Assembly: GCA_041662125.1 (NCBI GenBank)
Contig: JBAZTA010000003.1
Coordinates: 71,992-135,991 of the forward strand
DNA: 64,000 nucleotides
From: Candidatus Omnitrophota bacterium
GTDB taxonomy: Bacteria; Omnitrophota; Gorgyraeia; Gygaellales; Profunditerraquicolaceae
Direction of reading: 5' to 3'
Shown piece after piece: positions 6,323 to 28,816 of the stretch. How positions within the stretch are numbered: the stretch's first letter is position 1; every line of letters starts with the position of its first letter. Position numbers and translations under genes: made by a program. Under the pieces are notes generated by a model. It worked only from the letters and a program-made list of their open reading frames with translations, ran no database searches and was not told the DNA's origin.

Positions 6323-6454
6323 GACTTCCTCCTTAATTGATTTCTACTTTCGTTTTATTTAATTGAAGTCTATAATCCCTGCTCAAAACCGTTTGCAAAG
6401 TGTATTGAAATAAAATAGCTTTGATCGTGGCTATAAACTGTTACCTGATATAAA

Positions 6455-11549: not shown

Positions 11550-11562
11550 GTATTATGCGGAA

Positions 11563-11707
11563 CACCTCGCCTTAATTTGAAAGGCGAGTGTACTGCTTTC
11601 TGCAGTAGAAAGCCGCACACCCGCGCAATTCCGCCGCAGCAAGCGGGGCGTACCCAGCCATACCAATTAGCTGGGTGCGATTAGCGCGTGGTGTTGCAGA
11701 CAACTCG
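11563..11707 (+). repeat. structured intergenic element, copy A (AGAAAG-loop hairpin plus bulged CACCC..GGGGUG hairpin, two sub-hairpins)
   Basis: Core GCAGTAGAAAGCCGCACACCCGCG...GCGGGGCG followed by TACCCAGCCATACCAATTAGCTGGGTGCG. The element is enclosed by the long-range pairing GGCGAGTG.../...CAACTCGCC. Related copies occur at 20148-20200 and, inverted, at 28707-28800. Confidence 0.5.
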
Positions 11708-11710
11708 CCA

Positions 11711-13555
11711 TCAAAACTCAATTTTCACGCCATTGGTGATAGCAAATCCCGGCATGGGAAATTCGCGGATCACTTCATATTTTTTGTTTAACAGGTTATC
11801 AATAGAAAAGTAATACGTGAAATATGGGTTGAATCTTTTTGATGCATGTATCCCGATTGAGTAAAATCTTTTCACTTTGACCGTGTTTGCGGCATCGTGG
11901 TAGCGTTTGTCGGTAAATTGAGCGTTTATTTTTATGGAAAAGCCATGTAAGTCTGCGTATGCAAGAGAACAATCAGCTTTATGTTTTGGCTGGTAGATAA
12001 GGTATTTGTTTGTTTGGTCATCGATCGCGCGCAAAAAAGTATATCCGGTATTAAACTGAATATTTTTCGCAAGCGAGATTTTATTCTCAAATTCTATGCC
12101 GTCAATGAGCGCTGAGCCTACATTATCAGGCATCCAAACTCCTGCATCTTCTGCCCAGTTGATCAGGTCTTTGAAGTCATTCCTGAAGTAAGTCAGGCGT
12201 GTGGTTAAAAAGTCATTGATGGATAGTGTTGTGCCGATTTCTTTTGTTATTCCTTTTTCCGGTTTTAATCCGGGATTTCCTTTTGCCCATCCTTCATCAG
12301 GCCAGTAGAGATCATTAAAGGTAGGCGCGCGGAAAGACCGGCTGATCAATCCATGGAATTTTAAGACAGGATTGAAGCGGTAGAGAAAGGAAAAATTGGG
12401 GTTGCTTTGAGTTCCGAAATTCGAATAATCGTCGAATCTGGCCCCTAAGTTGAATTCTAAATTTTCTAAAGCAGTGAATTTGTTCTCTAAATAACCGGCT
12501 ACGACGTGGTAGTTATTCTTTTGGGAATTAGTGCTGTCATTGGTATTGCCAATATAGTTAAAGCCACATATGAAGTGATAGCGGTCCTGGAAGAGTTTTT
12601 TATTGCCTTGAATGTCAAAGCCTGTTACGTTGGTCGTATGGATATCTTTTTTATTTGCGGTATCAAAAAAAGATCCGGCTGTGAACTCACTAAAAATCAA
12701 TTTATCATAACTGTGGTAGGATTTGAACGATAATCCAGCCGATTCATCAGGCGTATATTTCCAGGTGAGATCTTGAGAATTCTTTCGGGAATTCTGCTTG
12801 TCATCGGAATCAGGCTGGGATAGAGAGCCGGGTGAGCCGAGGTTGCTGGAATAAAAGCCGGAATTGAATATGATTGCATGGGCTTCGTGAGGCGTATATT
12901 TTAATTTCATATTATAATCTTGCGCGTTGAATAATGCGTTTGCCCTGAAGCCGTCTGAATGGGTATATCCATGGGTGAAGAGGTATCCGAATTGTGAGTT
13001 TGCGTTTCCATTTGTCAGGCGCTGGGTATAGGTGCGTAAGCTCCCGATACTGGAATATAGTTCTGTCTTAGGGCTTTTGCGCGGTGGATCTTTGGTGATG
13101 ATGTTAATCGCCCCCCCCATGGCGCTTGAACCGTAGAGATGGGATACCGGCCCATGCACGATTTCTATTTTATCTACCGTATCCAGCGGGATCATGCTTA
13201 AATCAGCCTCTCCATTTCTTGGGCTGTTTATAGGCTTGCCGTCGACCATAACTAACGTTTGCGCCGCGCTTGAGCCGCGCATGCGAATGTTTTTGGTCGC
13301 CCCCGGTCCTCCATAATTACTTATATTGACTGCGGTAAATTGCGTGAGGAGTTCGCTGAGGTCGCCTGATGCTGTTTTTTCAATGTCTTCTGAAGTTATC
13401 ATATCGACATTTTGAGGGGTATTTCCCGATGGTTCTTCGGTGCGTGAAGGGGTTACAACGATCTTTTCTAATGAAAGGTCCTGACTTTTCGAAATGCCAT
13501 AAAAGCTTAAAAAAACCAGTGCCGTTAGTATTACGTTCTTGATGCGTGGTATCAT
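11711..13555 (-). CDS. TonB-dependent outer-membrane receptor, BtuB-like (cobalamin/siderophore class)
   Basis: 614 aa. It has a signal peptide, TonB box LEKIVVTP, a plug domain, a 22-strand barrel and a C-terminal aromatic residue (…GVKIEF). It lies directly downstream of a candidate cobalamin riboswitch within the cob/btu locus. Confidence 0.85.
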   Translation of the reverse strand: MIPRIKNVILTALVFLSFYGISKSQDLSLEKIVVTPSRTEEPSGNTPQNVDMITSEDIEKTASGDLSELLTQFTAVNISNYGGPGATKNIRMRGSSAAQTLVMVDGKPINSPRNGEADLSMIPLDTVDKIEIVHGPVSHLYGSSAMGGAINIITKDPPRKSPKTELYSSIGSLRTYTQRLTNGNANSQFGYLFTHGYTHSDGFRANALFNAQDYNMKLKYTPHEAHAIIFNSGFYSSNLGSPGSLSQPDSDDKQNSRKNSQDLTWKYTPDESAGLSFKSYHSYDKLIFSEFTAGSFFDTANKKDIHTTNVTGFDIQGNKKLFQDRYHFICGFNYIGNTNDSTNSQKNNYHVVAGYLENKFTALENLEFNLGARFDDYSNFGTQSNPNFSFLYRFNPVLKFHGLISRSFRAPTFNDLYWPDEGWAKGNPGLKPEKGITKEIGTTLSINDFLTTRLTYFRNDFKDLINWAEDAGVWMPDNVGSALIDGIEFENKISLAKNIQFNTGYTFLRAIDDQTNKYLIYQPKHKADCSLAYADLHGFSIKINAQFTDKRYHDAANTVKVKRFYSIGIHASKRFNPYFTYYFSIDNLLNKKYEVIREFPMPGFAITNGVKIEF

Positions 13556-13584
13556 GGTTCTCCTTTTCTTTCCGTCGAAAGTAC

Positions 13585-13730
13585 TTCCTTGGTAGGTGAT
13601 AGACCGGACTTCTCTTACTTTGATAAGAGTTTACCGTTGCGGGGCAGTGGCTTTTGATTTTTCTTCTCCTTTTATGGAGACCTGTCTCCTTGCAGGCTCA
13701 AATAAGCACTTCCTTCACCTATCCGGGTTT
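13585..13730 (-). promoter_or_regulatory. candidate cobalamin (B12) riboswitch in the leader of the BtuB-like receptor
   Basis: The minus-strand RNA has a closing P1 (GGAUAGGUGA...UAUCACCUACC) enclosing GCCACUG, CCCGCAACGGUAAA and a B12-box-like AAGUCCGGUCUAUCACCUACC. It sits immediately upstream of the receptor start. Confidence 0.45.
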
Positions 13731-13734
13731 GATT

Positions 13735-14442
13735 TTACTTATCGCTGCTGCCGTATTTCTTGATATCAAGAAACCAGTGTTTCCAGAAACCGTCTTTTAA
13801 AATTGGTGATGATTCAATGATCTGGAGCCTTTTTTTAAAAATCGGTCCGTCGATAACAAGCGTATGGTATTCTCCGTTTTCTCCGCAGGGGCAGATGCCT
13901 TTTTTCTTTAGTTCCTCGATCAGGGGGAGGTTGATTTCTCTGCCGATGAATTCTTTGCCCATCAAGTCAGCTTTTGCGCTGACAATGATTGCTTTGAACC
14001 CCAATGCGATGAATTCTTTGATAATATTTTCCGTCGGGATCTCCCAGAGCGGCTCAACCGCCTGTATCCCTATCTCAGCGCAGACGCGTTCGACCCAGCT
14101 TTGGTGGTCTAAGAGGTAAATGTCACCGAACACCATTGATGTAATGCCCTGGGGTAAGAATTCGGTCACTGCTTTTTTAAACTCTGCTTCGTATTTTTGC
14201 ATGTCGGGGCTTACTTCTTTTTGAACTATAGGAACGCCGATTAATTCAGCCTGTAGTTTGAGCAGCCCTCCTTCAAGCCCGTGAAAACAGCCTCGTTTTG
14301 AGTCTTGAGAAATAAAGTTTAAAAGACAGGACACCTGGTATCCCGCCTTGAGCGCTTTATAGTACGCCAGGCAGCTGTCTTTTCCTCCGCTCCAGGAAGA
14401 TATTGCCGTTGTTTTTTTAGATGTTTTTGTCATAGTATCCAT
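13735..14442 (-). CDS. PP-loop ATP pyrophosphatase, Dph6/MJ0570 (DUF71) family
   Basis: 235 aa with the SWSGGKDS PP-loop and ExxE motifs. It is embedded between cobS and the btuB-like gene. Confidence 0.7.
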   Translation of the reverse strand: MDTMTKTSKKTTAISSWSGGKDSCLAYYKALKAGYQVSCLLNFISQDSKRGCFHGLEGGLLKLQAELIGVPIVQKEVSPDMQKYEAEFKKAVTEFLPQGITSMVFGDIYLLDHQSWVERVCAEIGIQAVEPLWEIPTENIIKEFIALGFKAIIVSAKADLMGKEFIGREINLPLIEELKKKGICPCGENGEYHTLVIDGPIFKKRLQIIESSPILKDGFWKHWFLDIKKYGSSDK

Positions 14443-14457
14443 GGTGGACCTCCTGTG

Positions 14458-15189
14458 CTAAAGAATACAAATCCATAATAAACAAATGATTTCGCTTATT
14501 TCGTTGATGGCTCCCAGCGTATCGCCTGTCATGCCTTCGATCTTACGGGATAAAGACCGGCCTAAGAAATAGGTGAAAATAGTTATGATGAGAAAAAGTA
14601 AAAGGCCCTGTAATCTGCCGATGCAGAGGGCGCATACTATGGTTACCAGCGCAGCTTTTGTTACAATTCCTGCGTTTATCCCTTCAAAGAAAGATTTCGC
14701 TTTGCCATCTTTGCGCGCGTAGGGGAATAAAAATAAGTTCCAGACTAAAGCCCATCTGCCAAGCAGGCACATTAAAAGTAATGCTGTCGGTTTAGCTGCT
14801 GGCGCTAAAGCATATAAAAAAGCAAATTTCAGGGACAGAGCGCTGGTTATACTGACTACTCCCATGACGCCGATATGCGGGTCTTTCATGATGGCAAGAG
14901 ATCCTTCTTTACTCTTGCCGCTTAAGAGGCCGTCTGCGGTATCAGCAAGCCCGTCAAGATGCATTGCTGCAGTCAGAATTGCCAGCGTAATCACGAGTAT
15001 AATATCGATAGATAACGGGGGTAATCCGATAAAACGGCACAGGGTATGCATGAAGCATAATGCGGCGCCGAGCAATAATCCTACGAGTGGAAAATATACT
15101 AATGATCGTGATGCTGTTTCTTGAGTGAGCGTTTTTATTTTTACCGGAATAATAGTTAAAAATTGTAAAGCAAAGAATAGATGTGTCAT
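14458..15189 (-). CDS. cobS: adenosylcobinamide-GDP ribazoletransferase (cobalamin 5'-phosphate synthase)
   Basis: 243 aa polytopic membrane protein. MTHLFFALQFLTIIPV and the DGLADTADG motif are present. Confidence 0.85.
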   Translation of the reverse strand: MTHLFFALQFLTIIPVKIKTLTQETASRSLVYFPLVGLLLGAALCFMHTLCRFIGLPPLSIDIILVITLAILTAAMHLDGLADTADGLLSGKSKEGSLAIMKDPHIGVMGVVSITSALSLKFAFLYALAPAAKPTALLLMCLLGRWALVWNLFLFPYARKDGKAKSFFEGINAGIVTKAALVTIVCALCIGRLQGLLLFLIITIFTYFLGRSLSRKIEGMTGDTLGAINEISEIICLLWICIL

Positions 15190-16247
15190 TGTGGCAATTT
15201 TTGAGAAACGTTGGCACTCTGGAAAGAGGCCATTTGGGTTAATATTTTTAAGGAAGCTTCGATGAGCGGCATTGCTAATGCGGCGCCGGTTCCTTCCCCG
15301 AGGCGCAGTCCTAAATTTAAAATAGGTTTAAGCCCTAGTTTCTTTAAGATCACCGCATGGCCTTTTTCCACTGATTCGTGGCTGGCGATCATATACTCTT
15401 TGCTGAGCGGCTGTAATGTATAAGCGATAAGTGCGGCCGCCCCCGAGTTGAAACCGTCTATAACAACAGGGATCTTACGCGCTGCTGCTGCCAGGATGAT
15501 GCCCGTGATCCCGCCAATTTCAAATCCTCCGACTTTTGCCAGGACATCAAGGGGGTCACTATGATCAGGCTGATTGATCTTAAGCGATTTTTTGATAACG
15601 CTGATTTTATGCTTAAGCCCACGTTCATCGATCCCTGTCCCTCTTCCGGTTACATCAACGACATCGTTTTTGGTCAATACCGCGGTGATAGCGCTTGATG
15701 CGGTGGTGTTGCCGATACCCATTTCCCCGGTCCCGATAATATCAATCCCATTCTTGAATTCGTTTTCGAAAATCGTGATACCGGTTTCTATCGCTTGGAT
15801 CGCTTGATCGCTTGACATCGCGGCAGTTTTTGCCATATTGCGCGTGCCGCAGGCGATTTTCTTCACGATTAACCCATTTTTCTGCGCCAGATCGACAGCG
15901 ACGCCCACATCAGCGACGACCACTTTGGCTCCGGCATGTTTTGCCAATACATTGATGCCTGCGCCTCCAGAAAGAAAATTATAAACCATTTGCGCAGTGA
16001 CTTCTTTGGGGAATGCGCTCACGTTTTCTTCAGTGACTCCGTGGTCAGCAACAAGGATGAAAATGACCTTGCGGGATACATCCGGGTTTTTCTGCCCCGT
16101 TATCCCGGCGATTTCTTTTGCCAGGTCTTCTAACCTGCCTAAACTTCCCTGTGGCTTGGTAAGATTATCCAGCCTTATTTGCGTTTCTTGCATCAGGAGA
16201 TGGTTGATACTGGTTATGTTTTTTAGAGTTTGAGTGAGAATATCCAT
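15186..16247 (-). CDS. cobT: nicotinate-nucleotide--dimethylbenzimidazole phosphoribosyltransferase
   Basis: 353 aa with GEMGIGNTT, the ADHGV region and C-terminal GEGTGAALAMPL. Confidence 0.9.
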   Translation of the reverse strand: MDILTQTLKNITSINHLLMQETQIRLDNLTKPQGSLGRLEDLAKEIAGITGQKNPDVSRKVIFILVADHGVTEENVSAFPKEVTAQMVYNFLSGGAGINVLAKHAGAKVVVADVGVAVDLAQKNGLIVKKIACGTRNMAKTAAMSSDQAIQAIETGITIFENEFKNGIDIIGTGEMGIGNTTASSAITAVLTKNDVVDVTGRGTGIDERGLKHKISVIKKSLKINQPDHSDPLDVLAKVGGFEIGGITGIILAAAARKIPVVIDGFNSGAAALIAYTLQPLSKEYMIASHESVEKGHAVILKKLGLKPILNLGLRLGEGTGAALAMPLIEASLKILTQMASFQSANVSQKLPQ

Positions 16248-16249
16248 TT

Positions 16250-16765
16250 TTATTTTACCTTTAACGGTTGCGCTGAAACCATAAAAATAACAGTATCTGA
16301 TTCTTGAGCGATGAGTTGATTGATCAATCCTGCGGTATCCCTGAAAGCTCTTGCCAGTTTGTTAGCCGGGACAATACCAAGCCCGACTTCATTAGAAACG
16401 AGTATAGCCTGAGAGTTGAGTTTTTTCAGCGCTGCGGCCAAAGAAGACATTTTTTTTTGAATGGTATTGTTTTTGATACCGGTTAACATGAGATTCGAAA
16501 CTAACAGTGTTAAACAATCAATGATGACGCATTCGAAATTAAAATCCTTAGCTTTAATTATTTTTTCAGGGTCGAGGCATTCCTCAAAAGTTTTCCAGGC
16601 AGATGGCCGGGATTGTTTATGGAGTTTGATGCGTTGTTTCATCTCTTGATCTTTGGCTTGGGCAGTGGCGATATAGGCGACTCTTGTAAAGCGCTTGGCT
16701 AATTTCAGGGCATGACTGCTTTTCCCGCTTCTTGCCCCTCCTAAAATAAAGGTTATTTTACCCAT
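16250..16765 (-). CDS. cobU: bifunctional adenosylcobinamide kinase / adenosylcobinamide-phosphate guanylyltransferase
   Basis: 171 aa. The Walker A GGARSGKS and the overall CobU/CobP length and fold fit. Confidence 0.85.
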   Translation of the reverse strand: MGKITFILGGARSGKSSHALKLAKRFTRVAYIATAQAKDQEMKQRIKLHKQSRPSAWKTFEECLDPEKIIKAKDFNFECVIIDCLTLLVSNLMLTGIKNNTIQKKMSSLAAALKKLNSQAILVSNEVGLGIVPANKLARAFRDTAGLINQLIAQESDTVIFMVSAQPLKVK

Positions 16766-17399
16766 TTTTTCCCTTCATGCGCATTCTTTTTAAAGAAGGC
16801 GGTTCTAAATGTTTGGTGTCGTTAAAGATCTTTATCCGAGCAGTTTTATCCGTATAAACAATAATACTGATGGCTGTTGAGCGCGGGATCTGTTTCCAGA
16901 AATCACGGGTTTTCAAGAGGTAGGTTATATAGATACTGATCGTCCCTCCGTGGCATACTACCGCTATTGTTTTATTGGTATTGGCAGCAACAATATTTTT
17001 TATTGCTTTTACTACCCGCTTCCTGAAATCTGTTACTTTTTCTCCCCGGGGGATAGCTACGCTGAAAGGGTCGTTAAGCCACCGGGAGTAAAGTGTTGTG
17101 TATTTTTTCATGATTTGCTTATGTTTAAGGCCTTCGAAGCATCCGAAATGCATTTCGCGTAAATCAGGGATCTTTTCTATTTCCTTGTCCTTGAAGATTA
17201 TCTGAGCTGTCTGGATAGCGCGTTTTCTATCGCTGGCATAAATTTTGTGGATAAGCTGGCCTTTGAGCCTTTCAGAGAGCCGTGCTGCTTGTTTTTTGCC
17301 GTCGGCATTAAGCGCTATATCTTTATAACCGCAATATTTTTTTTGAAAATTCCATGCGGTTTGCCCATGCCTGATCAAAAAGAGGGTTGTTGAGGTCAT
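16758..17399 (-). CDS. cobC: alpha-ribazole phosphatase (histidine phosphatase superfamily)
   Basis: 213 aa with the RHGQTAWN catalytic motif and a CHGG region. Its position in the cob operon supports CobC. Confidence 0.75.
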   Translation of the reverse strand: MTSTTLFLIRHGQTAWNFQKKYCGYKDIALNADGKKQAARLSERLKGQLIHKIYASDRKRAIQTAQIIFKDKEIEKIPDLREMHFGCFEGLKHKQIMKKYTTLYSRWLNDPFSVAIPRGEKVTDFRKRVVKAIKNIVAANTNKTIAVVCHGGTISIYITYLLKTRDFWKQIPRSTAISIIVYTDKTARIKIFNDTKHLEPPSLKRMRMKGKNG

Positions 17400-17409
17400 A
17401 TGTTTTCTG

Positions 17410-18204
17410 CTACCTTTCCGGGCTTTTATCAGTTGCGGAAACTAAAAGCACGTACGGTTTTTTATTTATCGGGTTTTTATCAACCACGACCACTGTTTTA
17501 TATACCGATTCGATTGTTTGATACGTGAGTACCTTTTCAGGCGAGCCTTCAGTAAAGATCTTCCCGTGATCCAGTAAAACCAGGCGGTTGCAATATTCCG
17601 CAGCGAGATTTAAGTCGTGCATTATAATGACAATGGTGAGGCTCTTGTTTTGGTTGAGCGTTTTGAGCATGTCTAATATTTGTATTTGATGCCCGATATC
17701 AAGGTGTGAAGTCGGTTCATCAAGGAATAATATTTTAGGCTCCTGCGCGAGCGCTTTGGCAATGAAGACACGCTGGCGTTCTCCGGAACTCAATTCATTG
17801 ATCCGCTTGTTCTTAAGCGTTTCGGTGTCTGTCAGAAGCATAGCTTCATGCGCAGTTGCCAGGTCTTGCTTTGTCTGCCACGCAAGGCGTTTCTGATGAG
17901 GTATCCTGCCCATGAGAACAATTTCAAAGGCAGTGAATGAAAAATTTACGGCAGTATCCTGGGCAACGAACGCAGCCTGCTGGCAGAATTCTTTAATGCC
18001 CATAGTATTGGTTTCTCGGTTGTTAAGCTGGATCGAGCCTTGGCGAGGTTTTAAGGCGCGGCTCATGACGCGTAGTAATGTTGTTTTGCCGGAACCGTTC
18101 GGCCCGATAATACCGATAAAATCACCTTTTGTGATCTCAAGCGTAATATCGTGCAATATGTCTCCTGTATAATAACCCGCGCTTAAATTGTTTATTTGTA
18201 TCAT
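17410..18204 (-). CDS. ABC transporter ATP-binding protein (BtuD/FecE-like, cobalamin/iron-complex import)
   Basis: Walker A GPNGSGKTT, signature LSSGERQRV and Walker B ILFLDEP. The start was reassigned to MIQINNL at 18204, because the track's longer 315 aa ORF overlaps the permease by 157 nt. Confidence 0.85.
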   Translation of the reverse strand: MIQINNLSAGYYTGDILHDITLEITKGDFIGIIGPNGSGKTTLLRVMSRALKPRQGSIQLNNRETNTMGIKEFCQQAAFVAQDTAVNFSFTAFEIVLMGRIPHQKRLAWQTKQDLATAHEAMLLTDTETLKNKRINELSSGERQRVFIAKALAQEPKILFLDEPTSHLDIGHQIQILDMLKTLNQNKSLTIVIIMHDLNLAAEYCNRLVLLDHGKIFTEGSPEKVLTYQTIESVYKTVVVVDKNPINKKPYVLLVSATDKSPER

Positions 18205-19181
18205 TTTTCTTGTACCCGTTGGCTCTTTTTGAGCAGGATAATGAATACAGGAGCGCCAATGATCGCTGTGATAACACCGATCGGGATCTCCAAAGGCGGA
18301 TATATGGTCCGTGAAACGGTATCGCAGGTGACCATGAATGCCGCTGCTGCCAGGCACGTCGTGGGAATAAGTATTTTATGATTTGAACCTACCAGTAAAC
18401 GCATGATATGGGGAATGATCAATCCGACAAAACCGATAATACCGCATATGCAGACGATGCCGGCGGTAATAAGCGAAGTGACTACCAGTAAGATCTTCTT
18501 GACAGTTTCAACGTTAATGCCTACGTGCAGCGCTTCTTCTTCTCCCAGGCTTATGGCATTGAGGTCCTGAGAAAATATGTAAAGTATTGCGATGCCTGCG
18601 CAAACCAGGAATGCGACCATGGCAATAAGAGTAATGTCGTATACCTGCAGGCTTCCCCAGAGCCACCAGGTTATCCCGTGCAGCGCTTCATTTCCTGAAA
18701 TTGAGATCAAAAAGACGATGACCGCTGAGAGTGCTACTGACACGATAACTCCGGAAAGTATCAGTGATTGTTCCTGAACCTTGTTGTTCTGTTTGGCCAG
18801 GGTATAGACTAAAATACAGCTGGAAATTGCCCCCAAGAATGCCGCCAAGGGGAAATAGATACGTGATATGCCAATGATCAGCCCTATGACTGCTGCCAGG
18901 CCCGCACCGCTTGATGTCCCCAGAAGGTATGGTTCAGCCAGCGGGTTGCGTAAAATAGCCTGGAGGACTAATCCCGAGACAGCTAAACCACTGCCGGCTA
19001 CTATCGCGATCAATATCCGGTAGAGCCGTAGCGTAAGGATCGGATGGTTTTCTTTCTTGAGTAATTCTCCAATTGATAAATTAGCCGCGCCTTTGATGAC
19101 GCCTATGATGACTGCCGCAATTAATATTGCTCCCAGCCAGAATAATATTTTCTTAAGATTAATATTCATGTGCGGATACAT
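18201..19181 (-). CDS. ABC transporter permease, FecCD/BtuC family
   Basis: 326 aa with about 9 TM helices and the LGEEEALHVGIN region typical of FecCD permeases. Confidence 0.85.
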   Translation of the reverse strand: MYPHMNINLKKILFWLGAILIAAVIIGVIKGAANLSIGELLKKENHPILTLRLYRILIAIVAGSGLAVSGLVLQAILRNPLAEPYLLGTSSGAGLAAVIGLIIGISRIYFPLAAFLGAISSCILVYTLAKQNNKVQEQSLILSGVIVSVALSAVIVFLISISGNEALHGITWWLWGSLQVYDITLIAMVAFLVCAGIAILYIFSQDLNAISLGEEEALHVGINVETVKKILLVVTSLITAGIVCICGIIGFVGLIIPHIMRLLVGSNHKILIPTTCLAAAAFMVTCDTVSRTIYPPLEIPIGVITAIIGAPVFIILLKKSQRVQEK

Positions 19182-20004: not shown

Positions 20005-20023
20005 GTGAGTAGTAGGTATATTA

Positions 20024-20147
20024 CTCCACCTCGTAAGCATGCGTAAAATTCCCTCATTTCCCAAGAGGTGCGCAAAAATTTCTTTTAAAATTTTTGCGGT
20101 GTTACGTTGTGGGAAATGAGGGAATTTTATTCGCATACTCGGTGGAG
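20024..20147 (-). promoter_or_regulatory. large leader hairpin (~125 nt) immediately upstream of the btuF-like start codon
   Basis: Outer arms CTCCACC/GGTGGAG, perfect 17-bp inner stem AATTCCCTCATTTCCCA/TGGGAAATGAGGGAATT, and a nested palindrome GCAAAAATTT...AAATTTTTGC at the apex. Confidence 0.5.
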
Positions 20148-20200
20148 TTTGCGGCAGAAAGCCGCATACCCGCGTAGTACCGATTAACGCGGGGTGTCGC
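20148..20200 (+). repeat. structured intergenic element, copy B
   Basis: TTTGCGGCAGAAAGCCGCATACCCGCGTAGTACCGATTAACGCGGGGTGTCGC: an AGAAA-loop hairpin followed by a bulged ACCCGCG/CGCGGGGTG hairpin. Same architecture as copy A (11594-11680). Confidence 0.5.
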
Positions 20201-20527
20201 TATATTTTGTTTTATATATGTGCTCAAAAAACCAAAAACCCCAAGGACAGTTTATGTGAATTAAACTATGCTCGGGGTTACGCCCTGTTTTAAAACCTTA
20301 TCCTCGAGGTATAACAAAATATGCAGGTGAGGTGTTCTGACTCGGAGATCATCCTACTTTTCCACGCCTTCCCGGAGCTAAAGCTCCAGTGGCTTGATCT
20401 TTGGAATTTCGTACTTCCTTACAGCAGCGGGACTGTGCTTGAATTTAACAAGCTTCCCTTACCTTTTTTCATCCTAACCGAAATATATAGTTGTGTCAAG
20501 AAAATTTTTTTAAAAAAAACCTAATTC

Positions 20528-20758
20528 CTAAGGATTGTCTTTGTCAGGGGCCCTTTTTACGAGTATTACAGCTGCGTTATATTCTATGCGCTGTCCCGGG
20601 CGGATCTTTGCTGCTTTGCGCGTTTCAATGATGCCGTCGACTTTAACCAAGCCTGATTCGATGGCGTGTTTAGCCATGCCGCCGCTTTCAGAGAGGCCCA
20701 TAATTTTTAATATTTTGAAAAGTTCGAGGTATTCGCTGGTCAGATCAAAAGAGTCCAT
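20528..20758 (-). CDS. S4-domain RNA-binding protein (YbcJ-like)
   Basis: 76 aa with the S4 fold pattern (GLVKVDGIIETRKAAKIRPGQRIEYN). Confidence 0.65.
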   Translation of the reverse strand: MDSFDLTSEYLELFKILKIMGLSESGGMAKHAIESGLVKVDGIIETRKAAKIRPGQRIEYNAAVILVKRAPDKDNP

Positions 20759-20763
20759 GGCTT

Positions 20764-21761: not shown

Positions 21762-21828
21762 GGTCCTGCTTTCATGTGCATGCCTTTCATTTCTTTGAGT
21801 TTAAGCAAAGCTGACGGTAACCTTTTTT

Positions 21829-22488
21829 TTAGTTGTACTGGATGCCGGTTGCGTCGTTCCCAAATTTTCCTATTAAGGGGACAAAAACACAGCCGCATAT
21901 ATAGGTTGATTCAAGCTTGTTTGCTTTCTTTTCAACTAATGTTAACATTTGGCTCATCTGCTGCCCTATCGGTAAAATGAGCTTGCCGGATTCTTTAAGC
22001 TGTTCGGTTAACGGCAGCGGAATACAGGGGCTGGCGGCGGTGATGATGATCCGGTCAAAGGGAGCCTCTTCTTTCCAACCTAATGTCCCATCACCTATTG
22101 AAAAACGGATGTTTTTATATCCCATCGCAGTGAGGGTATCGGCTGCATGTAATGAGAGCTTTTCGAGCCGTTCTATGCTCAAGACCTCTTTTGCTAATTC
22201 CGCAAGTATTGCCGTTTGATATCCTGATCCTGTGCCGATCTCAAGGACTTTCTCTCCGCCGCTTAAGTCCAGGTATTGCGTCATTATTGCAACAATATAG
22301 GGTTGCGAAATGGTTTGTCCTTCTCCAATAGGCAGGGGAAAATCTTCGTAGGCCGAAGCAAGGTGTTCTTCATTCAGGAACCGGTGACGTTCTACTTTCC
22401 TGAAGGCATCAAGGACGCGTTTGTTTTTGATCCCCCGGGCAATAAGTTGTTTTTCAACCATGCGTTTTCTTAATGACGAGTAATCCAT
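21829..22488 (-). CDS. pcm: protein-L-isoaspartate O-methyltransferase
   Basis: 219 aa with TISQPYIVAIMT and the LEIGTGSGYQTA SAM motif. Confidence 0.85.
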   Translation of the reverse strand: MDYSSLRKRMVEKQLIARGIKNKRVLDAFRKVERHRFLNEEHLASAYEDFPLPIGEGQTISQPYIVAIMTQYLDLSGGEKVLEIGTGSGYQTAILAELAKEVLSIERLEKLSLHAADTLTAMGYKNIRFSIGDGTLGWKEEAPFDRIIITAASPCIPLPLTEQLKESGKLILPIGQQMSQMLTLVEKKANKLESTYICGCVFVPLIGKFGNDATGIQYN

Positions 22489-23210
22489 AGTTCTTTTATG
22501 ATGAATCTGATGAACCGAATGGTGTCCCAGACAGGATGAATGTTGCTTTTTTCACCCTGGTAGACAGTTTTTACCGGGATAGATTTAATGGTAAACCCCA
22601 GGCGTGCGGCTTGAATGAGGATTTCAGATTCAGCTTCATACTTATAGGTTTTCAGGTTTATTTTACTGAGTACTTCTTTTCTAATGAGCCGAAAGCCGCA
22701 TTGCGAATCGGGGATCTTTTGTTTGCATAATTGAGAAATAATCCAGGACATCAATTTGTTGGTTTGGATGCGTATGAATGGCATGGTTCTTAGCTGGTTC
22801 ATACGATTTCCTATCAATATTCCGGCATTCGATTGTTCGGCCAGGGCAATAAAGTGGGTCACTTCTTCGGGGAGGTGTTGGCCGTCTGCATCCATGGTAA
22901 CCACAGCGTCAAATTCCCGTGAAAGAGCGAAATCGAAACCTTTATTTAATGAGGCGCCTTTACCGATATTCTGCGGGTTAAGAAGCACTATTGCCCCCGA
23001 GTTTCTGGCAAGGGAAGCCGTATTGTCTGAGGAACCGTCGTCAATGAGTATGATCTCGAGGTTTTGCCCCAAAATGCTTTTGACGAGCCCTTCTACGGCG
23101 CGGGATTCGTTATAGGCGGGCATGATAACACAGGTTTTCATATTATGGCTCGATCCAGTATTTTCTGAACATATACCATTGTTCAGGGTATTTTCTGATA
23201 TACGTTTCAA
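22470..23210 (-). CDS. glycosyltransferase family 2 (Dpm1-like polyprenyl-phosphate glycosyltransferase)
   Basis: 246 aa with CVIMPAYNE, ILIDDGSSDNT and a DAD motif. Confidence 0.8.
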   Translation of the reverse strand: MKRISENTLNNGICSENTGSSHNMKTCVIMPAYNESRAVEGLVKSILGQNLEIILIDDGSSDNTASLARNSGAIVLLNPQNIGKGASLNKGFDFALSREFDAVVTMDADGQHLPEEVTHFIALAEQSNAGILIGNRMNQLRTMPFIRIQTNKLMSWIISQLCKQKIPDSQCGFRLIRKEVLSKINLKTYKYEAESEILIQAARLGFTIKSIPVKTVYQGEKSNIHPVWDTIRFIRFIIKELWITRH

Positions 23211-24039
23211 TGATCGCCTTGTAAAGAATTGTGATCTCTTCTACTTTTTTGTCATCTAAGCTAAAACCATTGTTTTTATCCTGGTTTTTTAAGGTTTGCG
23301 CAGGTATTTCAATCGGTTTTTCAAATCTGAGCGTGAAGCTGTCATCAGGGTTACGCAGCATGAACCCGGGTATGATGGGAGCTCCTGTTTTGAGCGCGAA
23401 GGCTGCCGGGCCTTTGGGCAGAGTTGTGAATTTATTAAGAAAATCGACCGCAACACCTTTTTCTTTAGTAAAATCCCTGTCTCCTACCAGTGCCAGGAGC
23501 TTATTATCTTTTAAGACCTTTAAGCTTTGCCTGACTGCATTCCCAAAAGGTATTATTTTTACATTTTTTATTGCCCTTTGAAAATTAAAAAAATCATTCA
23601 CTTTTTTGTTTTTATGCGGGAGCGCGACTGCCCAGAAAGGATATCCAAGCTGCGCGGTAACGACCCCTCCTAATTCCCAGTTTCCGATATGCGCGGTCAA
23701 TATAATGCCGCCTTTGCCTTTTTTGAGGGTATCATCCAGGTAGTGCAGGTTTTCAATGGTAATGTTGTTCCTGATATATTCTTTATTTAAGATTGAAAAC
23801 CTGAAGAAATCTACGAGGTATTTTGCAAAATTCCTGAACATCTCTAAGCGTATTTTATTGCGTTCCCGGGAGGTTTTTTCCGGGAAGATCGCTTTCAGGT
23901 TTTCCTTAACAGTTTTGCGGTCAATATTGGCAAAAAGGAAATGAACATCAGAGAAGAATATAGCCAGGTGGTAACTCAGCTTTAAGGGGAGCGCTAATAC
24001 TAAGAATTGCCCTAAACGGTAAAGGAGATAATTAAACAT
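23143..24039 (-). CDS. lysophospholipid/lipid A acyltransferase, LpxL (HtrB/MsbB) family
   Basis: 298 aa with a single N-terminal TM, an HIGNWE catalytic motif and a LPLAT fold. Confidence 0.7.
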   Translation of the reverse strand: MFNYLLYRLGQFLVLALPLKLSYHLAIFFSDVHFLFANIDRKTVKENLKAIFPEKTSRERNKIRLEMFRNFAKYLVDFFRFSILNKEYIRNNITIENLHYLDDTLKKGKGGIILTAHIGNWELGGVVTAQLGYPFWAVALPHKNKKVNDFFNFQRAIKNVKIIPFGNAVRQSLKVLKDNKLLALVGDRDFTKEKGVAVDFLNKFTTLPKGPAAFALKTGAPIIPGFMLRNPDDSFTLRFEKPIEIPAQTLKNQDKNNGFSLDDKKVEEITILYKAIIETYIRKYPEQWYMFRKYWIEP

Positions 24040-24066
24040 ATGTGTCGAATGTTGATTCGATGTGTG

Positions 24067-25185
24067 CTATTTAAGGCTTAATATCAACTTGCCAATATCA
24101 ACGCTGGAATTGGGCTTACTGATTTTTCCTGCGGATTCGCGTAATGCTTCAAGCATCTGCCGGTTTCCGATTAGTTCATCTATGGTAAAATTTATTTTAT
24201 TTGGTTTTTCTATCTTAACTGCCGCATGTTTTTGCGTCAAATAGTGGGTATTATTTATTTCCTGTCCCGGTATGGGTTTTACGATAATTAAGGGGAGTTT
24301 CTTAGTCAGTGCCTCTGCAGTCGTGATCCCTCCCGGTTTCGTGATGATGATATCGGCTATAGACATGAGTTCATTTATAGCATCGGTATATCCGAAAAGA
24401 ACAATTCTTTTCTTGTATTTCTTTATCTTTCGTTTGAGTGATCTGTTCAGCTTTTTGTTTGTTCCCGTAACGATGATCTCTTGAATATTGTGCGTAACTT
24501 TCTCTAAAGATTTAACAATTGTTTTGATGGGGCCCAGGCCCTGGCCTCCTCCCATGATCAAGAGGGTAGCCGCTTTTGGATCAAGTTTGAGCTTTTTTAT
24601 GACTTTGTCGCAGTCAACCGGATCATTGAATTTTGGGTCAAAGGGGATCCCGAAAGCTTTTATCCTGTTCTGAAAGATACCTTTTTTTATCAGGTTAAGC
24701 GAAACTTCTTCAGAAGGAGTTATATAATAATTGACCGTATCATAAACCCAGTATGAGTGCGGTACATAGTCGGTTAGCACAGCGATAAGCGGGATATCAG
24801 AGCCATAGGTCTTTTTGTAATCTGCGACCATTCCGCAGGGGAATGCCTGGGTACAGACAACAACATCGGGTTTAAAACGGTCAAAAAGGTTTTTGAGTTT
24901 CGGAGAATTGAATTTATGGATCACCTCTTTCATTTTTGCGATTTTCTTGGCAATTGTTGGGTTATCGTAAAGGTAATCCCAGATTTTAGGGGTTCGCTTA
25001 ATGATGCTCATGTAAATGCTGTTAACGAACTTTTCGGAGATCGGGTTTGTGTAATTAAATGCATTGATGTTGAGTGTTACGCTATCGGGTGATAACATCT
25101 TGATCGTTTTCTCGATCGCCAGTGTAGCGCTGTGGTGGCCGGAATTTTCAGAGATGTACATGAGGATGACACGTTTTTTGACCAT
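24067..25185 (-). CDS. glycosyltransferase family 28, MGDG-synthase/UgtP-like diacylglycerol glycosyltransferase
   Basis: 372 aa: N-terminal MGDG_synth domain and C-terminal Glyco_tran_28_C (LLIMGGGQGLGP, ITKPGGITTAEAL). Confidence 0.75.
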   Translation of the reverse strand: MVKKRVILMYISENSGHHSATLAIEKTIKMLSPDSVTLNINAFNYTNPISEKFVNSIYMSIIKRTPKIWDYLYDNPTIAKKIAKMKEVIHKFNSPKLKNLFDRFKPDVVVCTQAFPCGMVADYKKTYGSDIPLIAVLTDYVPHSYWVYDTVNYYITPSEEVSLNLIKKGIFQNRIKAFGIPFDPKFNDPVDCDKVIKKLKLDPKAATLLIMGGGQGLGPIKTIVKSLEKVTHNIQEIIVTGTNKKLNRSLKRKIKKYKKRIVLFGYTDAINELMSIADIIITKPGGITTAEALTKKLPLIIVKPIPGQEINNTHYLTQKHAAVKIEKPNKINFTIDELIGNRQMLEALRESAGKISKPNSSVDIGKLILSLK

Positions 25186-25187
25186 AG

Positions 25188-26357
25188 TTAGATTCTTCCT
25201 TCTTGATAAGCTTTTGTAAATGCTGCGACAATGTTCGGATTAAACTGCTGGCAGGCGAGGCTCTTGATCTCCTGAAGAGCTTCTTGTTTATCCTTTGCTT
25301 TACGATAGGGCCTGTCCGTTGTCATGGCATCGAAACTGTCGGCGACCGCGATAATAGCAGCGATTAGGGGGATATTTTCTTCACGTAATCCATCGGGATA
25401 TCCTTTTCCGTCATAGCGTTCATGGTGGTACTTTACCCCTAAAATGGCGTTTCCTAACTCTCCAATTGAATGAAGTATATTGGCGCCGATTACGGGGTGT
25501 GTCTGCATTTTTTTCCACTCTTCAGGCGTTAAAGGCCCTTCTTTGTTCAAGATGTTTTCCGGTATGCCGATCTTCCCGATATCATGGAGGAGTGCTGCTA
25601 TATGTAAATCTTCATAAAATTTATCCGCCAGGTTTATTGATTGTTCCTGGATTACTGTTTTGGCGATCTCGACACTGTAATGCGTTACCCGTTCAGTATG
25701 GCCGTGTGTATAGCGGTCTTTAGCTTCTACTGCCGCAGCAAGCGCGACTGTCGTGTTCATGAAGAGCTTTTGCCTTTTATCCAATTCGTCCTGCAGTTGT
25801 TTGAAAAGGCGCGCGTTGCGCATCGCCATCGCTACGTCTGAAGTCAGCGCGCTGAAAAATGCCAGCTCGTCCTGTTCAAACCGCCTCTTATTTTTCTTTT
25901 TTCCTAAAAATAATATGCCGACCAGGTCCTCCCGGAAAAAACTCGGTATACATACGGCGACATCAAAAATGTCAAGTTGATAGAGTACCTGTTCAAGCAG
26001 AGTCCTTATTTCCGGGCTAATATTCTTATTCTTTTTTAAGGCGTGTTCTGCTTCAGTATAGACGAAGGCCTCGTGATTAAAAAGCAGCCGTTCTTTATGT
26101 TCACGAAAGAACCGGATTAAAGGATTATCTATGTCGAGGCGGGCAAATCCTGCCGGCACCTTTAAGCCGAGCGGGCCCCGTGATACGGTGAGCACGTAGG
26201 TGTTTTGTTCAGGATGGTGCAGTAAAATCCCTGCGTGGCTTACTTGTACTTTTTGTACGACCAGCCTTACGATCATTTTAATGAGCAGGTCAGGCTCATG
26301 TACCAGGATCATGCTTTTAGCTGCCGCTTCAAGTTCTTTTTTGTAATCAATGCCCAT
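25188..26357 (-). CDS. GAF domain + HD-GYP c-di-GMP phosphodiesterase
   Basis: 389 aa: N-terminal GAF, then an HD domain (LLHDIGKIGIP) and the HD-GYP signature HHERYDGKGYPDGL. Confidence 0.85.
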   Translation of the reverse strand: MGIDYKKELEAAAKSMILVHEPDLLIKMIVRLVVQKVQVSHAGILLHHPEQNTYVLTVSRGPLGLKVPAGFARLDIDNPLIRFFREHKERLLFNHEAFVYTEAEHALKKNKNISPEIRTLLEQVLYQLDIFDVAVCIPSFFREDLVGILFLGKKKNKRRFEQDELAFFSALTSDVAMAMRNARLFKQLQDELDKRQKLFMNTTVALAAAVEAKDRYTHGHTERVTHYSVEIAKTVIQEQSINLADKFYEDLHIAALLHDIGKIGIPENILNKEGPLTPEEWKKMQTHPVIGANILHSIGELGNAILGVKYHHERYDGKGYPDGLREENIPLIAAIIAVADSFDAMTTDRPYRKAKDKQEALQEIKSLACQQFNPNIVAAFTKAYQEGRI

Positions 26358-26363
26358 GTGCCC

Positions 26364-26732
26364 TTATTCTTTTTTTAGGAAAGATAATACAATTCTTTCC
26401 AGCTCTTCCATCACGAGAGGTTTATGGATATAGTCAGAAGCCCCTAAGGCGATACATTTTTGGTAAATCTCTTCTTCGTCAGGTTTTTTACCTGTTACCA
26501 TGATGACTTGAATATCTTTGTTTTTCGCTTTAATGCATTGTAACGTCTCAATCCCGTCTTTACCGTCCATTTTTATATCGAGCAGTACTAATTGCGGGTG
26601 TTCTATATCAATTTTGCTTAATGCGTCATCGCCGCCGCAAGCAGTTTGTACGTCAATGTTACGCTTGCGGAAGAAACTAGCCGCAAACTCTCTGACATCC
26701 TGCTCATCATCAACAATCAGTAATTTAGCCAT
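26364..26732 (-). CDS. single-domain response regulator (CheY-like receiver)
   Basis: 122 aa with receiver residues LIVDDE, the phospho-Asp LLDIKMDG, and T/K at conserved positions. Confidence 0.85.
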   Translation of the reverse strand: MAKLLIVDDEQDVREFAASFFRKRNIDVQTACGGDDALSKIDIEHPQLVLLDIKMDGKDGIETLQCIKAKNKDIQVIMVTGKKPDEEEIYQKCIALGASDYIHKPLVMEELERIVLSFLKKE

Positions 26733-26799
26733 TCTACCCCCTTATTAATATAGCGTACTTCAAAAAAAAGAAAAGTTATTTTATTGCCTCACTGTTGCC

Positions 26800-28695
26800 T
26801 TATTCAAATGTCAGGGTCAGTGAAAAATTATCCTCTGAGTTTCCCAGCGTTACAGGAATGGGAGAAAATGGCGATGCCTGTAAGACGCAGAGTTCAGCGA
26901 CAGCATTTAAATTTTGATTAGTAGAAGTTACAATTTTTACCGGGCTTTTAAGGTTGCCGTCTTCATCAAGGGCAAAAGACAATGAAACTTTGCCTTTTTG
27001 AGTGGGATCATGGCGTGTTTGGGTATTCATTAAGGACTTTATCTTATTTATAATAGTTGTTTTGTATTCATCCAAAGTGCCTGGCTCTTTATTGCCAGCT
27101 TCAGCCGTGTTGTCATTACCTTGAGCTTGGGCAAAGGACTGAATATAGCTTATGTCTTTATCACCGGTGAGGCTGGTATATTCAAGAGGTTCGGCGCCGG
27201 TGATTATATGGGGAGTAATAAAAATCACCAGCTCCGTCTTTATGTTTTCAGTCCTGGTATTTTTTGTGAAAATATTGAGAATTGGTATATCACCCAAGAA
27301 TGGTATCTTTTTTTCTTCTTTTTCCCGCTGGTCTTTTTTAAGGCCGGCGATAATTATGGTTGTGCCGTCTTTTACCATGATCGTTGTTTCAGACTCAGAA
27401 GTGGTGACGATGGGGATCTGGGTAATTTTGCCGTCTGCGGTTATGTCGGTGCGTTTCGCGGAGCTAATTTCAGGTTTTATTTTCATGGTGACAAAACCGT
27501 CCCGGTTTATCGTCGGGGTAACATAGAGTTTAATCCCGACATCGACGAAATTCACCGATTGTGAAGTAACCGAAGAATCTCCCGACTGCGTGATGGCGGA
27601 AGTGATATAGGCTTCTTTGGTCCCGACCAGGATCTTTGCTTCCTGGTTATTCAGTGCCATGATCCGGGGGCTGGAAAGGATCTTGGTTTTTCCTATTGCG
27701 CTGAGCAAGTTGATCACTGATTTATATTCGCCTTTTTTGCTTACCGTTTCATTTGCAGCAGCAACTCCGAAAGATAGTTTGTTAGGGATGCTGGTAACAT
27801 CGCTTAAGGAAGGCGCTGGCAGCGAACTGACCAGCCGGACGTGGTCTTTAAGCCAGTAATCCCAGTCAATTCCCATGGTGAACTGGTCTTTTTGAGGGGT
27901 AATTTCGATGATTTGAGCGTCAATTAAGACCTGTTGTGTTTTTTCATCAAAAGCAGTGATAATTTTGGCTATGTCGTTGAGTTTTTCCGGGTAATCGGTT
28001 ACCGCGATCTTATTGGTCCGTTCATCGATTTTCATGGAGCCGATCGATTTTGTGATTGTTTCTGCGAGTTTTGCGCTTAATTTTTCTGCCGTCGCGTATT
28101 TAAGCTCAAAGATCATGGTTTCCAGAGGCAAGTCGGTTTTCAGGATAAAACTTTCTATTTCAGCTACTTTTTCCGGCGTATCGACTATGGTAAGGGTGTT
28201 TGAGCCTTCATCAACCACAACTTTGCCGATATTTGATTTTAGCTGCATAATGGCTTTCGATAAGTCTGCGGCTTTGGCATTCTTTATATGGAATACCTGC
28301 ACCTCTTTTTTATCCTGGAAACGTTCACCGTAAATAAGCTCATAATCACGTTGCGTCATGACGTTGATAATATCGTTTTTCTTGTCATAGGCGAGGTCAT
28401 TGGCAGATAACAGGATTTGAAAGGCTTCCCAGAGATCAACATCTTTTAGAAAGAGCGTTACTTTTCCGGTGACATTTTTTCCGACAATAATATTTAACCC
28501 GGAGCGAGTCGCAAGCATTTTCAGGACATCAGTAATGTCCATGCCCTTTATATCAAGTGAAACCCTGTTTTGTTCAGACGGCTTGGATATTTCCATTTGC
28601 GCAAGTTTTGCGTTTTGAGATATTTCCTGCGCAAAGGCTCTTGGGATAAACACGAACAATAGGAAACATAGGTATATGGTAATTCCCTTTTTCAT
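26800..28695 (-). CDS. type II secretion / type IV pilus secretin (GspD/PilQ family) with C-terminal TonB_C-like domain
   Basis: Start reassigned to MKKGITIYLCFLLFVFIPRAFA (signal peptide; RBS GGAGGA sits 6 nt upstream). It has N0/N domains and a secretin core (ILSSPRIMALNNQEAKILVG...IPFLGDIPILNIFTKN...ELVIFITPHII). The final ~95 aa (GKVSLSFALDEDGNLKSPVKIV...AVAELCVLQASPFSPIP) align with the C-terminus of the local TonB at 10827-11549. Confidence 0.85.
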   Translation of the reverse strand: MKKGITIYLCFLLFVFIPRAFAQEISQNAKLAQMEISKPSEQNRVSLDIKGMDITDVLKMLATRSGLNIIVGKNVTGKVTLFLKDVDLWEAFQILLSANDLAYDKKNDIINVMTQRDYELIYGERFQDKKEVQVFHIKNAKAADLSKAIMQLKSNIGKVVVDEGSNTLTIVDTPEKVAEIESFILKTDLPLETMIFELKYATAEKLSAKLAETITKSIGSMKIDERTNKIAVTDYPEKLNDIAKIITAFDEKTQQVLIDAQIIEITPQKDQFTMGIDWDYWLKDHVRLVSSLPAPSLSDVTSIPNKLSFGVAAANETVSKKGEYKSVINLLSAIGKTKILSSPRIMALNNQEAKILVGTKEAYITSAITQSGDSSVTSQSVNFVDVGIKLYVTPTINRDGFVTMKIKPEISSAKRTDITADGKITQIPIVTTSESETTIMVKDGTTIIIAGLKKDQREKEEKKIPFLGDIPILNIFTKNTRTENIKTELVIFITPHIITGAEPLEYTSLTGDKDISYIQSFAQAQGNDNTAEAGNKEPGTLDEYKTTIINKIKSLMNTQTRHDPTQKGKVSLSFALDEDGNLKSPVKIVTSTNQNLNAVAELCVLQASPFSPIPVTLGNSEDNFSLTLTFE

Positions 28696-28706
28696 ATTAG
28701 TCCTCC

Positions 28707-28800
28707 TGCCACAGAAAGTGGCATACCGGCCTATCCGATAAGGCCGGGTGTAAACAGCACCCCAGCTAATAGGTATGCTGGGTGCGCCCTTTCTGGGCAG
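28707..28800 (-). repeat. structured intergenic element, copy C (inverted relative to A and B), directly upstream of the secretin RBS
   Basis: Minus-strand RNA: a closing stem CUGCCCAGAAAG/CUUUCUGUGGCAG encloses hairpins CACCCAGC-AUACCUAUUA-GCUGGGGUG and CCGGCCU-UAUCGGAU-AGGCCGG. Hairpin 1 is near-identical to the second hairpin of copy A. Confidence 0.5.
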
Positions 28801-28816
28801 TAAGCGAAACATGCCG

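Follow-up and report, generated by a model that had tools for sequence, protein, structure and literature searches.

The 64-kb stretch of Candidatus Omnitrophota DNA analysed here (hereafter the window; 42.5% GC) contains six units of a two-hairpin element of approximately 45 nt, which lie in three intergenic clusters at positions 11561-11695, 20150-20198 and 28707-28799. We hypothesize, with a probability of roughly 0.6, that this element is a small, non-autonomous mobile repeat of about 45 nt that is recognized as a folded strand, and that it is specific to Omnitrophota and a few metagenome-assembled genomes (MAGs) labelled as Planctomycetes. Within this family the three window sites are unexceptional. 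An initial annotation of the window had reported three copies of a structured motif and read them as a repeat of the REP or MITE (miniature inverted-repeat transposable element) kind rather than as a riboswitch. The motif is present at each of the three sites, as both the sequence and a covariance model confirm, and its AGAAA-loop hairpin, CAYACC...G-GGTG frame and bulged G are as described there; the three copies, however, are actually six units.

The layout of a unit is TG-stem1-AGAAA-stem1'-CA / YACC-stem2-(WWTYCCGATWA loop)-stem2'-G(bulge)-GTG. Hairpin 1 is a 5-6-bp stem around an AGAAA loop (TGNNNC-AGAAA-GNNNCA), and it is joined with zero spacer to hairpin 2, which has the frame YAC-C...G-(bulged G)-GTG and an A/T-rich loop of 8-13 nt with YCCGAT. 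A script that sought AGAAA loops with a closing stem of 4 bp or more recovered four full units from the window. The covariance model (R1), built from 22 units of other genomes and three window units and run unfiltered on both strands of the 64 kb, gave five matches, corresponding to the units U1 to U5, with all else at E >= 0.1; nhmmer was less sensitive than the covariance model and missed U4.

Three of the units are U1 (11561-11607, minus strand; complete, 59.7 bits, E 1.2e-14), U2 (20150-20198, plus strand, antisense to the btuF operon; 63.4 bits) and U3 (28707-28752, plus strand, antisense to the secretin gene; 68.2 bits). U4 (28756-28799, minus strand, sense) has a 5-bp stem 1 and a CCCAGC stem 2, matches R1 at 36.6 bits (E 2.5e-8) while absent from the model, and has its ortholog at L112:9861-9904 (related loci outside the window are designated by L numbers). 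U3 and U4 stand tail to tail with a 3-nt gap between them, so that what had been taken for a single inverted copy is a pair. The first cluster had been described as 11594-11680 with two hairpins, but it runs from 11561 to approximately 11695 and holds three units, U1 on the minus strand and U5 and U6 on the plus strand. Within the 5' part of U5 (11601-11631, plus strand), hairpin 1 (TGCAGT-AGAAA-GCCGCA) is followed by the stem-2 5' arm (CACCCGCGC) and by AATTC, which forms the first half of loop 2; in its 3' part (11678-11695, plus strand), assigned by alignment with related loci, the loop-2 remainder CGATTA is followed by the stem-2 3' arm (GCGCGTGGTG) and by TT. The same alignment indicates that loop 2 of U5 is split by a complete U6 (11632-11677, plus strand), a member of a subfamily with an AGCAA loop and a CCCAGC stem, which is nested at TTC^CGAT; its boundary is uncertain by up to 2 nt because CG is present at both joints. 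U5 is absent from the model and its R1 match spans 11601-11652 on the plus strand (28.2 bits, E 5e-6); a partial match at 11653-11675 is hairpin 2 of U6, which is near-identical to L024:3914-3960 (32.6 bits). A stem-1 arm of U1 shares 7 nt with U5. Nested composites of the U5/U6 type also occur at L024:3748-3848 and L093:6432-6536, and the uninterrupted form is seen at L069:2477-2525.

Compensatory base changes between copies are abundant. Within the window alone, stem 1 occurs as GCGGC/GCCGC, GCCAC/GTGGC and ACTGC/GCAGT, and stem 2 as CCCGCG, CCGGCC, CCCAGC and CTCGCC. In a first alignment, which was partly shaped by the search pattern itself, pairing holds in 96% of cells and double-sided changes occur at 9 of the 15 pairs; among 69 distinct metagenome units these figures are 97.1% and 14 of 15. 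The covariation score of these 69 units is 0.486, against 0.155 for shuffled alignments and at most 0.073 for slid controls (over both alignments, 0.39-0.49 against 0.15 and below 0.08). Almost no variation is seen in the loops, in the C-G pair closing hairpin 1 or in the CAYACC/GGGTG frame, while the stems vary freely. All clusters fold far better than shuffled controls, whichever strand is taken (z -4.2 to -5.7 for the first and third). The stems are Watson-Crick paired on both strands: G.T (31) is about as frequent as A.C (35) and both are rare, with the exception of one conserved Y.G at the base of stem 2. This does not fit selection at the level of RNA, which would favour G.U.

Several structural readings of the two loops were considered and rejected. 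Kissing between AGAAA and a TTTC in loop 2, or a guide-like pairing of loop 1 with a TTC target, is contradicted by AGCAA variants, which by eye keep TTC-type loops and flanks and thus show no covariation with them. Hairpin 2 is not tRNA-like, as ARAGORN gives only two true tRNAs, and its loop does not fit what we take to be the T-loop consensus. No Rfam 15 family matches the unit at gathering or permissive thresholds in the window clusters and unit-rich loci; elsewhere in the window Rfam recognizes only RNase P, a cobalamin riboswitch and tRNAs.

Further copies exist in large numbers outside the window. A loose pattern was scanned over 185,579 genomes, one per species. Matches with both stem 1 and stem 2 in full came solely from MAGs of Candidatus Omnitrophota, among them Velamenicoccus archaeovorus LiM, and from a small number of MAGs carrying the label Planctomycetales or Planctomycetia; of the 111 pattern matches outside Omnitrophota, most are chance hits that lack stem 1. 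R1 recovered 54 credible units from the genome loci, many of them unseen by the pattern, and a 21-mer scan of metagenomes yielded at least 120 loci with at least 252 R1 matches, counts that rest on the matches listed and may be higher in total. Viral contigs contained no units and gave scan matches at chance level only, on which ground a phage origin was rejected. One further cluster is found per approximately 29 kb around seed matches, compared with three clusters per 64 kb in the window, and by extrapolation a genome would hold tens to a few hundred units. Near-identical units at many loci of one MAG, VGKK01 (L016, L032, L033, L064), suggest recent spread.

Variation within the family extends to the frame itself. 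In one diverged subfamily (L074:3334-3381, L062:697-745, L198:1192, L215:13215, L232:6429, L171:687) hairpin 1 is TAAYCC-AGAAA-GGRTTA, and the frame TAGACC...GGGTCTA replaces CAYACC...GGGTG by compensatory change; some of its members lie directly before a Shine-Dalgarno sequence (SD), in sense orientation. The MAGs labelled "uncultured Planctomycetales/Planctomycetia" (L014, L021, L044, L049, L072 from CAZPNW01, L052, L029) carry the element in arrays and nests, and could reflect mislabelling, mis-binned Omnitrophota contigs or a wider distribution within the Planctomycetes-Verrucomicrobia-Chlamydiae (PVC) group.

The genomic placement of the units argues against a gene-specific function. Open reading frames (ORFs) were called again with the units masked, as naive calling had put 75 units "inside ORFs" through read-through of in-frame arrays and 5' over-extension. 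The units are intergenic and lie in long co-directional operons; between co-directional genes, 73 units are sense and 72 antisense (49 and 50 intergenic regions, respectively). Clustering of the 814 neighbouring ORFs revealed unrelated housekeeping genes with no family enriched. Presence at a given locus also varies. The syntenic locus L112, whose secretin is 84% identical, has four units upstream of the secretin gene compared with two in the window, and its btuF leader has the riboswitch and terminator as in the window and zero units; L113 (secretin 61% identical) has a 17-nt secretin gap and no unit in 22 kb. Given this random orientation, these unrelated neighbours and the absence from the L112 btuF leader and from L113, the element is not a cis-regulatory RNA and not a gene-specific switch. 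Any effects on the expression of btuB, btuF or the secretin gene would be a by-product of the landing site, and since the sites are repeats, there is no need to invoke new regulatory RNAs at these three genes.

The most direct evidence of insertion comes from units inside other units. A complete unit sits within loop 2 of another at TTC^CGAT in at least eight independent contexts (L209:6247, L014:3067, L093:6466, L206:256, L138, L149, L217 and U6 of the window), and excising the inner unit restores the consensus loop exactly, with zero duplicated bases. The restored host loops read TTTC / CGATAA in L209, AATTC / CTCTTAAG in L014 (identical to the intact loop at L021:3957), CAATTC / CGATTAG in L093 and U5, and CATC / CGATGA in L206. 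In other words, no target-site duplication (TSD) accompanies nested insertion. L206 and L221 are doubly nested. A filled and an empty paralogous site are both found in L171, where a module of approximately 260 nt occurs twice upstream of a LemA-like gene, one copy free of units and the other with three, one of them nested. This non-coding module (ATTCCGCCAGAGGCGGAA...CAGATATTTYCAAGATACRC...GGAGTTAACCCAGAAAGGGTAGACC...) lies at 660-1190 on the minus strand of L171 and also occurs in L041, L042, L122, L123, L129, L145, L223 and L227; it is conserved in several Omnitrophota species, V. archaeovorus among them, matches no Rfam family, and may represent a conserved leader, a small RNA or a larger composite repeat.

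Outside arrays, T (51%) and C (32%) prevail at the base preceding a unit, and the last 6 nt before a unit contain 4.08 pyrimidines compared with a background of 3.21. The commonest flanking trinucleotides are TTT (13%), ACT (10%), GCT (8%) and TTC (8%), a bias rather than one defined sequence. A run of at least 5 T stands directly before 16 sense and 4 antisense units, nearly always preceded by a GC-rich terminator stem, while CTCC, CCTC or TCCT, the complement of an SD, stands directly before 8 antisense and 0 sense units. A unit thus inserts just 3' of a pyrimidine tract in its own strand, which is a terminator tail in one direction and an anti-SD in the other, and this accounts for the 1:1 orientation. 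Head-to-head pairs that overlap by 6-7 nt (U1/U5 and L112:9822/9861) fit insertion after the TTTC of a reverse-complemented loop 1.

Where units neighbour one another, direct pairs outnumber inverted ones by 78 to 15 and the modal gap is 0 nt. Head-to-tail arrays have an exact 45-nt period and reach 7 units, although single units make up 116 of 179 arrays when identical units are collapsed. Inverted doublets are a minority in the family, while the window itself has two inverted pairs (U3/U4 and U1/U5). Either slippage or insertion after the GT(T) with which an earlier unit ends may produce the tandem arrays. In a number of contigs (L064 818-950, L151 930-1020, L147, L125, L153, L196, L231 and others) short inverted repeats (GCAATAACTTACGTCGYACT ... 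GYGCTCCGTAAGTTATGCGC) bracket single units and arrays alike; these contigs are of the Lake Tanganyika type (Ga0194111, Ga0194112, Ga0194125, VGKK01), and their BOX-like A-(B)n-C arrangement is without counterpart in the window genome. As the 45-nt period corresponds to 15 codons, some reading frames remain open through an array, giving rise to spurious ORFs of 100-150 aa or to 5' extensions of genes. Such array-derived or extended ORFs were seen at L211 2941-3387, L226 846-1181, L024 3736-4089 and window 26800-28833, and in-frame arrays are a likely source of false "hypothetical proteins" in the annotation of Omnitrophota MAGs.

We propose that the element spreads at the level of DNA. Hypothetically, a whole unit, which begins with stem 1 at its first base and runs through the GGTG that follows stem 2, would be inserted with fixed polarity immediately 3' of a pyrimidine-rich tract, usually one in or beside a hairpin. 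Four kinds of site would serve as targets without TSD: the T-run of a terminator, a CTCC anti-SD, the loop-2 TTC of another unit and the GT(T) end of an earlier unit. Repeated insertion after an existing unit, or slippage, would then lengthen arrays into exact 45-nt tandems. AGAAA, YCCGAT and CAYACC/GGGTG would most likely be the recognition determinants for a trans-acting enzyme that acts on the folded single strand, whereas the stems would need only to pair. From the observations above we infer that the process is transposition, that its substrate is single-stranded DNA, and that the enzyme resembles HUH/Y1 transposases of the IS200/IS605-RAYT type in its mode of action.

Several points weigh against this proposal. 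Neither an enriched neighbour gene nor a transposase was found among the 814 neighbouring ORFs, which come from genome fragments in windows of at most 22 kb, and a crude regular expression for the HUH...Y motif found none in the same ORFs. Target choice is biased rather than confined to a strict site, and hairpin 1 begins at the first base of the unit, unlike the end geometry of IS200/IS605. Conservation of the loops across lineages of 40-56% GC could reflect a host function, and slippage alone could produce the tandem arrays. Finally, the nested composites that recur in the window, L024 and L093 may have spread as composites rather than by independent nesting. Going further, we offer as a tentative idea, itself rather doubtful, that the units are the substrate of an unrecognized, Omnitrophota-wide system of single-stranded DNA transposition, whose enzyme would read the two loops and the bulged-G junction and integrate without TSD at pyrimidine tracts exposed by hairpins, including the unit's own TTC^CGAT. 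If true, no smaller self-targeting hairpin transposon would have been described so far, and an uncultivated phylum would offer a ready system for studying structure-guided DNA insertion.

The same structures could instead serve the host as RNA modules similar to REP/BIME or BOX elements, with hairpins that block 3'-5' exonucleases, set the stability of mRNA between cistrons or tune access to the SD, and loops that bind an RNA-binding protein. We consider this unlikely, although the folding of the clusters on both strands, the intergenic position of all units within long co-directional operons, the conservation of the loops across lineages, and the compensated stem 1 in the pair of units that end at the secretin SD (described below) speak for it. 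An orientation ratio of 1:1 places AGAAA in half of the transcripts and UUUCU in the rest, so that a loop-specific RNA partner could serve only half of the copies; moreover, G.U is not above A.C, sense units right after terminators would not be transcribed from upstream, copy number at a single locus shifts between close relatives, and nested copies break loop 2 of their host. A further reading is that the units are binding sites in DNA, cruciform or duplex, for a chromosomal protein (a nucleoid-associated protein, gyrase or IHF as at Escherichia coli BIMEs, or a recombination or segregation factor), with arrays kept by selection and no mobility. Independence of orientation, stems that are Watson-Crick symmetric on both strands, loop and junction sequences conserved across the phylum and arrays of exactly phased units would all agree with such sites. 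Yet the units are linked to no chromosomal landmark, precise nests and filled or empty paralogous sites require an insertion process in any case, and density is uneven, from 0 units per 22 kb in L113 to a cluster every few kb in VGKK01 and Ga0194111 contigs, which leaves this explanation quite improbable.

Mobility of the repeat, as proposed above, is compatible with host roles such as REP/BOX-like mRNA stabilization or BIME-like protein binding, which are possible as secondary functions but fit the orientation and the nested copies less well. That the units are chance similarities or ordinary terminators is scarcely credible. Short GC-rich intergenic hairpins are common, and most of the 111 pattern matches outside Omnitrophota are chance. 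Still, R1 matches reach an E-value of 1e-17 and include units that the model was built without, stem covariation extends over hundreds of relatives, and no T-run follows the unit hairpins; covariation and the R1 matches in the window and its relatives refute this reading.

In the window, nearly all ORFs of at least 150 aa are on the minus strand across the 64 kb and intergenic gaps are very short. Approximately 13 gaps exceed 60 nt, of which three contain the repeat, all within 11-29 kb and none at 29-64 kb. The first cluster (U1, U5, U6) lies between the stop of a TonB-dependent receptor gene (11711; Plug and barrel domains in Pfam) and the start of a TonB-C-like gene (11549), and U1 is sense relative to these minus-strand neighbours. 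U2 is in the leader of an operon with btuF-like (Peripla_BP_2) and FecCD genes, between the terminator of a cobalamin riboswitch and the btuF-like ORF. U3 and U4 lie between a gene for a 213-aa protein and the secretin gene, which was identified by Pfam and whose product is 84% identical to an NCBI Omnitrophota protein and 100% identical to a protein in JGI, encoded on a contig of 396 kb. Look-ups of exact protein matches, made to extend the window contig, gave only short Logan contigs. According to precomputed domain hits, many homologues of the secretin in Omnitrophota (window 26800-28695; P0001-P0120) combine a TonB C-terminal domain (PF03544/PF13103) with Secretin and Secretin_N, and some sources label them "TonB family protein"; this pairing is unusual for a secretin of type II secretion systems or type IV pili (T2SS/T4P).

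The second and third clusters had been placed exactly at translation initiation regions, where they might modulate expression. This is accurate for U3, whose first base is the complement of the first A in the secretin SD AGGAGGA (28707-28701; ATG at 28695-28693). Both U3 and its L112 counterpart end exactly at this SD, and their stems 1 are compensated (TGCCAC/GTGGCA versus TTTCAC/GTGAAA); their position is explained by the preference for landing after an anti-SD pyrimidine tract. It does not apply to U2, which is approximately 146 nt upstream of the plausible btuF start codon. The btuF-like gene probably begins at the ATG at 20004-20002 (MKKFILSACLLLV..., signal-peptide-like), judged by its alignment with the N-terminus in L112 and lacking a good SD within 10 nt, and the longest ORF, from 20136, is probably over-extended by 44 codons. 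Modulation of expression by these two clusters is unsupported as it was put forward, since L112 has the riboswitch and terminator with no unit and the third cluster fits landing at a pyrimidine tract; an incidental effect on expression may exist at either.

The btuF-like transporter operon is under the control of a cobalamin aptamer at 20309-20497 on the minus strand (Rfam RF00174, 86.6 bits; gathering score 31.5), which is separate from the repeat. A terminator, with stem and T-run, follows the aptamer at approximately 20278-20226, and U2 is downstream of that terminator. U2 is ruled out as part of the expression platform because aptamer and terminator both lie upstream of it and both are present in L112 without a unit. 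The same leader contains a perfect palindrome of 86 nt (20044-20129), 20 nt from U2 and found once in the window, with outer arms of 20 nt (20044-20063 / 20110-20129, 100% complementary) and inner arms of 11 nt (20071-20081 / 20088-20098). The 20 nt between U2 and the palindrome (GCATACTCGGTGGAGTT) also stand beside U2-like units in L069 and L049, where another palindrome (AAATTTTCTTCGA...) stands in the equivalent position. This may be a second repeat family or part of a composite element. Elsewhere in the window, a class A RNase P RNA (6453-6954, minus strand, 224 bits) has 502 nt compared with the 367 positions of the model, its peripheral helices having large insertions of approximately 50 and 47 nt.

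The Omnitrophota are a phylum of ultra-small bacteria, some of them predatory, that are uncultivated and known from metagenomes alone. An element of 45 nt that occurs throughout such a phylum is a marker for binning and strain typing, as well as a likely cause of contig breaks and spurious ORF calls. It also makes precise insertion without duplication, into hairpin loops as well as beside terminators and ribosome-binding sites, tractable to study, and its precise self-nesting and hairpin-adjacent insertion are the features most worth following. No description of Omnitrophota intergenic repeats, REP, REPIN or RNA motif turned up in the searchable literature, and Rfam likewise has nothing on repeated DNA of the phylum.

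Comparison with other repeats clarifies what the element is. The earlier preference for a REP- or MITE-like repeat over a riboswitch is borne out by dispersal, random orientation and variable presence at a locus, but strict membership in either class fails on the testable defining features. A MITE has terminal inverted repeats and a TSD; here the ends TGCCGC... and ...CGGGTG are not complementary and insertions lack a TSD. Like the REP, BIME and REPIN elements of Proteobacteria, which are associated with RAYT (TnpA-REP, HUH Y1), the units are short, intergenic, high-copy imperfect palindromes that cluster in both orientations, vary in number between relatives and are presumably read as single-stranded structures, and U3/U4 and U1/U5 form REPIN-like inverted pairs. 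In contrast to REP, the consensus TGCCGCAGAAAGCGGCAYACC...GGGTG has neither GTAG nor GTGG at either foot and thus no GTAG-type 5' tetranucleotide, the two hairpins are unlike and have conserved loops, direct tandems dominate over doublets, units nest in the loops of others, and no RAYT was found in the searched ORFs; the element also spans many lineages of a phylum instead of a single species or genus. CRISPR arrays are excluded, as units abut with a 0-nt gap and no unique spacers, and so are type III toxin-antitoxin (ToxI-like) RNA arrays, as arrays occur in many unrelated contexts with no recurrent adjacent gene.

Three further systems share particular traits with the element. Insertion in a fixed orientation into the loop of a repeated palindrome, or right after a terminator stem and T-run, is known from IS1397 and ISKpn1 in REP loops and from class C group II introns after terminators, although these are kilobase-sized, autonomous and enzyme-encoding while the unit is 45 nt and non-coding. 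The IS200/IS605 family and PATEs resemble it in having no terminal inverted repeats, no TSD, a hairpin at each end and insertion of fixed polarity 3' of a short target; they differ in that the target here is a pyrimidine-rich bias (TTC, TTT, TCC), the hairpins are at the very ends without guide or cleavage spacers, and no TnpA was found in the genome fragments. The BOX element of Streptococcus pneumoniae (boxA-(boxB)n-boxC) belongs to another phylum, and a sequence relationship is not expected. It too has a head-to-tail module of approximately 45 nt in variable number, intergenic, non-coding, stable in predicted structure and with no known transposase, and the Lake Tanganyika-type arrays, in one lineage only, are bracketed by short inverted-repeat modules (GCAATAACTTACG...CGTAAGTTATGC); single units, by contrast, are the rule in the present family, and the window genome has no brackets. 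Our verdict is that the element represents an undescribed REP/BOX-like family.

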